The position numbers and the translations under genes were made by a program. Shown in pieces: positions 1 through 366 of a DNA stretch of 366 nucleotides. The notes beneath the pieces were generated by a model, which was given only the letters and a program-made list of their open reading frames with translations, was not told the DNA's origin and did no database searches. Within the stretch, counting starts at the first letter, position 1, and each line of letters begins with the position of its first letter. This DNA comes from Escherichia coli (GTDB taxonomy: Bacteria; Pseudomonadota; Gammaproteobacteria; Enterobacterales; Enterobacteriaceae). Location: assembly GCF_003334305.1 (NCBI RefSeq), contig NZ_QOWS01000082.1. One strand, 5' to 3'.

Positions 1-62
1 AATTTGAGAGACTCACGAACAACTTTCGTTGTTCAGTGTTTCAATTTTCAGCTTGATCCAGA

Positions 63-75
63 TTTTTAAAGAGCA
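63..75 (-). promoter_or_regulatory. boxA-like antitermination motif of the rrn spacer (NusB/NusE binding-site type)
   Basis: Minus-strand sequence TGCTCTTTAAAAA (reverse complement of plus 63-75) differs at one position from the rrn leader boxA TGCTCTTTAACAA. It sits just downstream (in the transcript) of a hairpin, giving the boxB-then-boxA order typical of rrn and lambda nut antiterminators. Functional assignment rests on established knowledge of E. coli rrn operons. Confidence 0.7.
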
Positions 76-76
76 A

Positions 77-114
77 ATATCTCAAACATCACCCGAAGAT
101 GAGTTTTGAGATAT
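77..114 (-). promoter_or_regulatory. boxB-like RNA hairpin upstream of boxA in the spacer transcript
   Basis: Minus-strand RNA ATATCTCAAAACTCATC-UUCG-GGTGATGTTTGAGATAT folds into a 17-position stem capped by a UUCG tetraloop. It has one G-U wobble and a 2-nt internal mismatch (C-U, A-G), with 14 Watson-Crick pairs. Pairing was checked by hand. The boxB role is inferred from its position next to boxA. Confidence 0.5.
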
Positions 115-148
115 TAAGGCAGGTGACTTTCACTCACAAACCAGCAAG

Positions 149-224
149 TGGCGTCCCCTAGGGGATTCGAACCCCTGTTACCGCCGTGAAAGGGCGGTGT
201 CCTGGGCCTCTAGACGAAGGGGAC
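149..224 (-). tRNA. tRNA-Glu (anticodon UUC), complete 76 nt with encoded 3' CCA
   Basis: Reverse complement of 149-224 is GTCCCCTTCGTCTAGAGGCCCAGGACACCGCCCTTTCACGGCGGTAACAGGGGTTCGAATCCCCTAGGGGACGCCA. It has a 7-bp acceptor stem (GTCCCCT/AGGGGAC), anticodon loop CUUUCAC with anticodon UUC, T-arm GGTTCGAATCC and terminal CCA. This is identical to E. coli tRNA-Glu as I recall it. In E. coli the spacer copies are gltT/U/V/W; which copy this is cannot be determined from the window, so the symbol is left empty. Confidence 0.97.
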
Positions 225-309
225 GTATCAGTCTGCTTCGCAAGACGCCTTGCTTTTCACTTTCTATCAGACAATCTGTGTGAGCACTTCAAAGAACGCT
301 TCTTTAAGG
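225..309 (-). other. 16S-23S internal transcribed spacer, segment between the 16S 3' end and tRNA-Glu (85 nt)
   Basis: Lies between the mature 16S 3' end (310) and the tRNA 5' end (224) on the same strand. Minus-strand sequence begins CCTTAAAGAAGCGTTCTTTGAAGTGCTCACACAGATTGTCTGATAGAAAG..., which resembles enterobacterial spacer sequence as I recall it. Contains no ORF and is part of the pre-rRNA transcript. Confidence 0.9.
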
Positions 310-366
310 TAAGGAGGTGATCCAACCGCAGGTTCCCCTACGGTTACCTTGTTACGACTTCACCCC
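310..366 (-). rRNA. rrs: 16S ribosomal RNA, 3'-terminal 57 nt (partial; gene continues beyond the right edge of the window)
   Basis: Reverse complement of 310-366 reads GGGGTGAAGTCGTAACAAGGTAACCGTAGGGGAACCTGCGGTTGGATCACCTCCTTA, the canonical 3' end of bacterial 16S rRNA including the anti-Shine-Dalgarno CCUCC and terminal UUA. Match to the E. coli 16S terminus is from memory, not a database search. Confidence 0.96.

Follow-up and report, generated by a model that had tools for sequence, protein, structure and literature searches.

The 16S–23S spacer of Escherichia coli rRNA operons contains, between boxA and the 23S gene, a short stem-loop whose pairing is conserved among enteric bacteria and whose flanks show conserved complementarity to the 23S trailer. 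We interpret this hairpin, with a probability of roughly 60%, as a variable stem-loop of the pre-23S leader that would form the passive third arm of a three-way junction in an extended leader–trailer structure; the arm, we infer, has no sequence-specific partner. On its own the hairpin matters little, as a catalogued piece of the E. coli rRNA spacer with a putative function, and the conserved strands around it are likely to be a distal extension of the 23S leader–trailer helix.

The window, i.e. the whole stretch of DNA that was analysed, is 366 nt long and covers an E. coli rrn 16S–23S spacer read on the antisense strand, the rRNA-sense strand being the minus strand. Many complete E. coli genomes carry a sequence 100% identical to it, and one such copy, located between clpB and kgtP, was used together with its flanks (locus L001, in whose coordinates the core hairpin lies at 4333–4350, the 23S start at 4412 and the 5S start at 7410). 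The 23S gene begins 45 nt past the end of the window, and RefSeq annotates nothing at the hairpin region. With 16S, tRNA-Glu, boxB, boxA and 23S mapped, the context given in the initial annotation, within an rrn spacer and downstream of boxA, proved correct. A coding reading of the window was rejected, the open reading frames being only 20–44 aa long and all situated in rRNA/tRNA DNA. The elements of the window are as follows:

310–366, minus strand: 3' end of 16S (Rfam SSU match).
149–224, minus strand: tRNA-Glu(UUC).
76–115, minus strand: spacer boxB, a long hairpin upstream of boxA (inverted repeat and fold).
About 63–75, minus strand: spacer boxA, UGCUCUUUAAAAA, directly upstream of leader strand A (read from the sequence; identity from known rrn nut-like sites, PMC6614801, PMC10250234).
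43–64, minus strand: leader strand of helix A, AAUCUGGAUCAAGCUGAAAAUU (cofold with the 23S–5S spacer).
39–42, minus strand: junction strand GAAA, which joins leader strand A to the hairpin, hardly varies among Enterobacterales (invariant columns) and is unpaired in cofolds.
14–38, minus strand: full stem-loop, 10 bp (fold, pair probability and Rfam consensus shape).
17–34, minus strand: core hairpin GAACAAC-GAAA-GUUGUUC, 7 bp and a GNRA tetraloop, with arms at 17–23 and 28–34.
24–27, minus strand: GAAA tetraloop (read from the sequence).
5–11, minus strand: leader strand of helix B, UCUCUCA (cofold with trailer UGAGAGA).
1–71, minus strand: 5' two thirds of a match to Rfam RF01830 (StyR-44), 81.5 bits; the family runs past the window end.

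The window also includes, at 275–284 (plus strand TCTGTGTGAG; RNA strand CUCACACAGA), the 16S trailer strand that, according to its sequence and the published description (PMC10250234), is complementary to the 16S leader boxC, UCUGUGUGGG; the 3' strand of the 16S leader–trailer helix is thus present as well.

The core hairpin exists as originally described, with 7-nt arms that are 100% complementary and separated by 4 nt, and folds on the minus strand with a minimum free energy of -7.4 kcal/mol (z = -4.8). A CAC/GUG pairing adds three base pairs below a bulged U35, which extends the structure to 14–38 (CAC-U-GAACAAC GAAA GUUGUUC-GUG, -10.3 kcal/mol). The loop, G27 A26 A25 A24 on the minus strand, is closed by the Watson–Crick pair C28–G23 and is of the GNRA type. 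A plus-strand transcript would fold into the same stem with a UUUC loop; that reading was set aside, as nothing points to antisense transcription of the rrn spacer. When the window was dinucleotide-shuffled 2000 times, a perfect hairpin of at least 7 bp with a loop of 3–8 nt turned up in 12.6% of the shuffles, and one with a 4-nt loop in 2.6%. Because about 13% of the shuffles yield a perfect 7-bp hairpin, the sequence of the window by itself is weak evidence, and on that basis the hairpin could be a product of chance. Judged by aligned homologs, the comparative data show the hairpin to stand above chance.

With boxA and the 5' end of 23S as anchors, one scan across representative genomes yielded 120 loci, mostly from Enterobacterales, which reduce to 92 distinct boxA-to-23S segments. 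In these, two leader strands, AAGCUGAAAAUUGAAAC and GAGUCUCUCAA, are nearly invariant, and the slot between them varies widely in sequence and length. All 72 distinct Enterobacterales slots fold into a single hairpin, most with z-scores of -3 to -6, and the stems are unrelated in sequence. Three size classes can be recognized, the long one with distinct versions:

Short class, stem about 10 bp: Escherichia, Superficieibacter and Mangrovibacter; with other sequence in Enterobacter, Klebsiella and some Citrobacter.
Medium class, stem 11–14 bp: Photorhabdus, Xenorhabdus, Edwardsiella and Dickeya.
Long class, stem about 20 bp with a conserved apical loop: Citrobacter, Pantoea, Buttiauxella, Cedecea, Erwinia and others.
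Long class, distinct versions: Yersinia, Serratia, Lonsdalea, Pectobacterium and Rahnella.

When 26 short and medium forms were aligned with MAFFT, 81.5% of the cells retained the E. coli pairing, versus 30–48% with slid partners; nine of the ten pairs are changed on both sides, and the covariation score of 0.577 compares with at most 0.17 in the controls and is reached by none of 500 shuffles. RNAalifold, run with no structure supplied, recovered the lower four pairs of the 7-bp stem, in AU, CG, GC and UA types. Compensatory changes occur at 15 of the 21 predicted pairs in 24 long forms. The structure used in the covariation test was taken from the aligned E. coli sequence, and the controls correct only partly for phylogeny; despite both caveats, the alignments clearly point to pairing as what is conserved in the slot. 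The stem thus covaries in related enterobacterial spacers, where the initial annotation had suggested that its reality be judged. Within E. coli itself, the hairpin region was found in 5424 of 5426 genomes, with a median of 7 copies per genome, and the variants seen keep the structure, namely a C-to-U change that yields a G–U pair (L106) and a loop change from GAAA to GAGA; the long form occurs in none of the 5426 genomes. In the long forms of many genera (L075, L080, L088, L094, L137, L145, L167 and others) the apical loop, CUCCGUAAUAAGAG, is almost invariant, and the stem below it covaries. Such invariance suggests that this loop may have a sequence-specific role in other genera, so that a purely passive model leaves the hinted function there unexplained.

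Several side observations emerged from the scans. Short and long forms coexist in one named species, Citrobacter amalonaticus (L158 versus L142, L159 and L187), which suggests exchange or deletion of the slot among rrn operons or strains. Two loci, from a metagenome-assembled genome labeled "Oxalobacter sp." (L151) and from an "uncultured Desulfovibrio sp." (L184), are identical to the E. coli sequence from boxA to 23S, and a Microbispora bryophytorum assembly (L174, coverage 0.83) carries an enterobacterial spacer under an unrelated taxon; all three are probably mis-binned or contaminant contigs. Viral contigs, scanned with the pattern TTGCUCUUUAAMAAUYUGGA, gave 68 loci (L002–L069); in nearly all of them, phage DNA carries a boxA of the rrn type, after which a stretch resembling TCTGGATATCCCTAAC recurs. 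These are presumably nut-like antitermination sites that copy the host rrn boxA, and the set was discarded as covariation material, being almost entirely phage DNA rather than rrn spacers. One viral-contig locus (TTGCTCTTTAAAAATCTGGATCAAGCTGAAAATTGAATCAACTTTAATAAC...) matches the enterobacterial spacer up to GCUGAAAAUUGAA, just before the hairpin slot, and continues into unrelated DNA; this switch could mark the boundary of a prophage or of a contig, or stem from a chimeric assembly.

The strands on either side of the slot find partners in the 23S–5S spacer. In cofolds, leader strand AAUCUGGAUCAAGCUGAAAAUU (window 43–64) pairs with GAUUUUCAGCCUGAUACAGAUU at L001 7349–7370 (helix A, with AUCUGGAUCAAGCUGAAAAUU predicted to pair with GAUUUUCAGCCUGAUACAGAU), and UCUCUCA (window 5–11) pairs with UGAGAGA at L001 7341–7347 (helix B). 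Both helices lie beyond the known 23S processing helix and are one trailer nucleotide apart, and the hairpin is the third arm of the predicted three-way junction. Folding with both 23S flanks leaves the hairpin intact, its pairs keeping probabilities of 0.998–1.0 with or without the 23S trailer; a fold that consistently pairs these bases elsewhere, which the initial annotation had considered, was not found. Its description of the hairpin as a structural element or part of the pre-23S fold has therefore held, through covariation and survival in the cofold, and its alternative of a boxC-like element has not, on account of unconserved sequence, spacing and self-pairing. It had also placed the hairpin downstream of boxA, which is right, and upstream of the 23S processing region, which is not: since the flanking strands are predicted to pair with the 23S–5S spacer, the hairpin would lie inside the extended leader–trailer structure.

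Both 23S flanks were recovered for 39 distinct operons from about 17 genera, 37 of which carry the enterobacterial motifs. In cofolds of these 37, helix A forms with the trailer in all 37, helix B in 35, and a local slot hairpin of at least 8 bp in all 37. Arsukibacterium, which lies outside Enterobacterales, has the same three-arm layout with different sequences. The distal leader–trailer pairing of E. coli is 16 kcal/mol better than that with a shuffled trailer (z = -5.65; none of 200 shuffles as good). In the two segments of helix A, 89–95% of the cells are paired, compared with no more than 57% over the whole structure when the partners are slid. One helix A pair covaries (AU 12, UA 10, UG 1), leader GGAUC going with trailer GAU and GGAAC with GUU; in addition, as read from the sequences, leader AUCUG goes with trailer CAGAU (or GGGAU via a U–G pair) and AUCCG with CGGAU. 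MAFFT does not align the trailers reliably at the far end of helix A and shifts the GAGAGA repeat of E. coli by two columns. For this reason the AUCYG/CRGAU covariation is argued from the sequences themselves, and the cell count for helix B is understated. The two strands of helix B are almost invariant, which is consistent with pairing and gives zero covariation; more generally, covariation in helices A and B is confined to two or three positions because both strands are so conserved. This strong conservation could reflect recognition by a protein or an RNase, instead of or besides pairing. In silico deletion of the hairpin left helices A and B unchanged, which fits a dispensable-looking side arm. 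In our reading, the three-way junction would also form in vivo. Downstream of helix A, no 5S occurs within the stretch read in Klebsiella michiganensis (L161) and several Pantoea operons (L075/L137–L139), where GCGCAGCAGCAAGGCG... or GCGCTGAGGCAAGGCGGCAA... is present instead; the region after 23S seems to be organized differently in these operons.

The E. coli pre-23S leader–trailer helix has been described as 27 bp only (PMC10250234), which counts against a longer structure; leader–trailer structures are reported to be ubiquitous but diverse (PMC11404451). Our search, which did not reach the older subscription literature, found no published account of an extended 23S helix or of a function for the hairpin; the extended helix is not claimed as new, and an earlier description may exist. 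According to the mechanism that we propose, the extended 23S leader–trailer structure would start right after boxA, and the hairpin would fold locally, at once on transcription. When the 23S–5S spacer is made about 3 kb later, the leader strands flanking the hairpin would pair with two nearly adjacent trailer segments, and the hairpin would stay folded throughout this pairing, becoming the third arm of the junction. By sequestering the variable insert between the two functional leader strands, it would hold these side by side for the trailer and keep them from mispairing; selection would then act on pairing and not on sequence, length or loop.

A bolder version can be put forward tentatively, and we regard it as possible rather than probable. 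The folding models would allow a pre-23S leader–trailer structure far longer than 27 bp, one that starts right after boxA, reaches 66 nt into the 23S–5S spacer and mirrors the 16S boxA–boxC/hLT arrangement. The hairpin might here be a required, fast-folding junction arm that brings the two leader strands into register for the antitermination complex to deliver them to the trailer, and it could in addition hold the excised "StyR-44" fragment on the 5S precursor, paired with the 5' leader of the latter. In the "delivery" model, the antitermination complex retains the leader close to the exit channel for RNA, where it awaits the emerging trailer (PMC6614801).

The hairpin is already catalogued within RF01830, and it is a real, ordinary structural element with a putative function. 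The match of the window (1–71) scores 81.5 bits against a gathering score of 54 and ends with the window; the full match in L001 (4296–4404, model positions 1–107 of 107) scores 124.9 bits, and the 23S gene starts 8 nt past it, at the location that characterizes the family. The consensus structure of the family includes this stem-loop with its bulge (<<<-<<<<<<<____>>>>>>>>>>), and every pair of the internal hairpin is standard for E. coli in the cmscan alignment. The 109-nt RNA StyR-44 was cloned from S. Typhi and lies upstream of 23S in all seven operons; its Northern signals in S. Typhi and E. coli are reported to be growth-rate dependent and to derive from processing of longer precursors (PMC2943607). 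All 7 copies reportedly rise strongly within 5 min in E. coli treated with carolacton (PMC5615136), and under the name sYJ118 this RNA was also recovered after treatment with tigecycline (PMC3511261). An alternative to the junction arm, which we consider unlikely, is that the hairpin is the stability or function module of a genuine sRNA. Together with a local closing helix it would protect a fragment of roughly 109 nt, released by RNase III and other cuts, which would act in trans or annealed to the 5' leader of the 5S precursor. The match to the family, the Northern signals, the drug responses and the stability of the hairpin by itself are all in line with this idea. However, the discoverers considered the RNA to be possibly just a metastable rRNA maturation intermediate (PMC2943607), the authors of the tigecycline study allow for a "by-product" (PMC3511261), and later transcriptome papers list an sRNA of unknown function or a possible by-product (PMC5615136, PMC3511261); no target or phenotype is known, and between genera the stem sequence and the loop change freely, as would not be expected of a seed or of a region that binds targets.

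The local closing helix cuts both ways. In RF01830 the domain is closed by GCUGAAAAUU/AAUUUUCGC and not by the long-range helix, and this local helix involves the same leader nucleotides as helix A, which counts against the extended structure; its 3' strand is not complementary in the leaders of Xenorhabdus, Photorhabdus and Dickeya, which counts against a stand-alone RNA. The local helix may form transiently or after cleavage and be restricted to Enterobacteriaceae. If the flanks are the 5' strand of the extended leader–trailer structure, StyR-44 would be a processing fragment. The simplest reading of the "StyR-44 small RNAs" in transcriptome studies is that they are pre-23S leader fragments, for which the hairpin serves as a marker.

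It is quite unlikely, in our estimate, that the hairpin is a neutral remnant in an indel-tolerant slot, left by apical deletion of a longer ancestral stem-loop, with pairing kept up solely by the tendency of palindromic remnants to fold. Such a history would accommodate the three size classes, the coexistence of short and long forms in C. amalonaticus, the base CGACACAC...GUGUGUUCG shared by short Enterobacter-type and long forms, and the absence of the long form from the E. coli genomes. Decay would nevertheless break the pairing, yet at least 8 bp are kept in 37 of 37 operons and in 72 of 72 slots, and in both groups, short/medium and long, most stem positions have undergone double compensatory changes.

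Still less probable, indeed very unlikely, is a specific recognition element of the boxC, lambda boxB or GNRA tetraloop–receptor kind that would bind an antitermination-complex protein (NusA, SuhB), an assembly factor or a receptor in pre-23S. The position downstream of boxA follows the order boxA–boxB of phage nut sites, the GNRA loop of E. coli is closed by C–G, the GNRA class is kept in a few Escherichia-type variants (GCAA in Mangrovibacter, GAGA in one E. coli strain), and the 3' arm in many other genera is GGUGUGU, which is GU-rich like boxC. GNRA loops are nevertheless found in only 10 of the 89 distinct homologous leaders (GAAA 8, GAGA 1, GCAA 1), on stems unrelated in sequence, and the commonest loop, CCGUAAUA, occurs in 44 of the 89; conservation of a GNRA loop is, by this comparison, limited to the Escherichia-type short form. 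Neither half of the 11-nt tetraloop receptor (CCUAAG...UAUGG) is present in the leader or the trailer, the regions searched. E. coli also encodes no N protein (PMC10250234), which speaks against a specific recognition element of this kind.

The boxC of the 16S leader is linear and almost invariant, lies 18–19 nt after boxA and forms the 5' strand of the leader–trailer helix, whose integrity matters more in 16S mutagenesis than the boxC sequence (PMC10250234). A boxC-like role for the hairpin is not supported, on three counts. Its sequence is unlike boxC and, like its loop, unconserved among genera. The stem-loop starts at window position 38 and boxA ends at about 63, so that the hairpin starts about 25 nt after the end of boxA and about 39 nt after its start, versus 18–19 nt between boxA and boxC. 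Finally, it pairs with itself in every cofold, and it is the neighboring strand 43–64 that pairs with the trailer. By position and predicted behavior, the boxC-like element of the spacer would be strand 43–64, not the hairpin.

Two further candidates concern processing and transcription. RNase III substrates comprise about two helical turns, roughly 20 bp of duplex. The hairpin does not match such a processing helix, with an E. coli arm of 10 bp and the known cleavage helix situated nearer to 23S (27 bp, PMC10250234). There is next to no chance that this stable hairpin within a transcribed spacer serves as a signal for transcription, whether as intrinsic terminator, as pause hairpin or within an internal promoter, since the stem is AU-rich with 2 G–C pairs in the 7-bp core, GUGAGUCUCUC and no U-run follows it, a consensus scan of L001 4200–4450 gave zero terminator-like and zero promoter-like sites, and the region is transcribed by antitermination-modified polymerase.

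Compared with known systems, the extended 23S structure in which we place the hairpin resembles the 16S boxA–boxC/hLT arrangement (Warner et al. 2023, PMC10250234). In both, a highly conserved leader strand comes directly after boxA and finds its partner in a trailer transcribed kilobases further on, hairpins internal to the leader separate this strand from the mature rRNA, and the structure of the helix outweighs its sequence. The 16S helix, however, flanks 16S and has been tested by mutagenesis, whereas the 23S version is predicted beyond its 27 bp; in this comparison the hairpin corresponds to a leader-internal hairpin and not to boxC. In the phage lambda nut site, too, a short hairpin, boxB, lies downstream of boxA and has a loop that is GNRA-like and rich in purines, but boxB has a 5-bp stem and a pentaloop, binds N and is about 8 nt away from boxA. 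In our element the loop is unconserved, the distance from the end of boxA is about 25 nt and N is absent from E. coli, and a lambda boxB reading is unsupported; the rrn boxB is a separate hairpin at window 76–115. StyR-44 (Salmonella Typhi npcRNA 44, sYJ118) shares with our element the locus, the 7 copies per genome, the sequence family and the consensus hairpin. It differs in that Rfam treats it as a stand-alone "gene" with a local closing helix, whereas the flanks described here fit better as the 5' strand of an extended 23S leader–trailer structure. By analogy only, the hairpin can also be likened to the variable, expansion-type arms at three-way junctions, which have a fixed insertion point and conserved pairing and are free in length and sequence.
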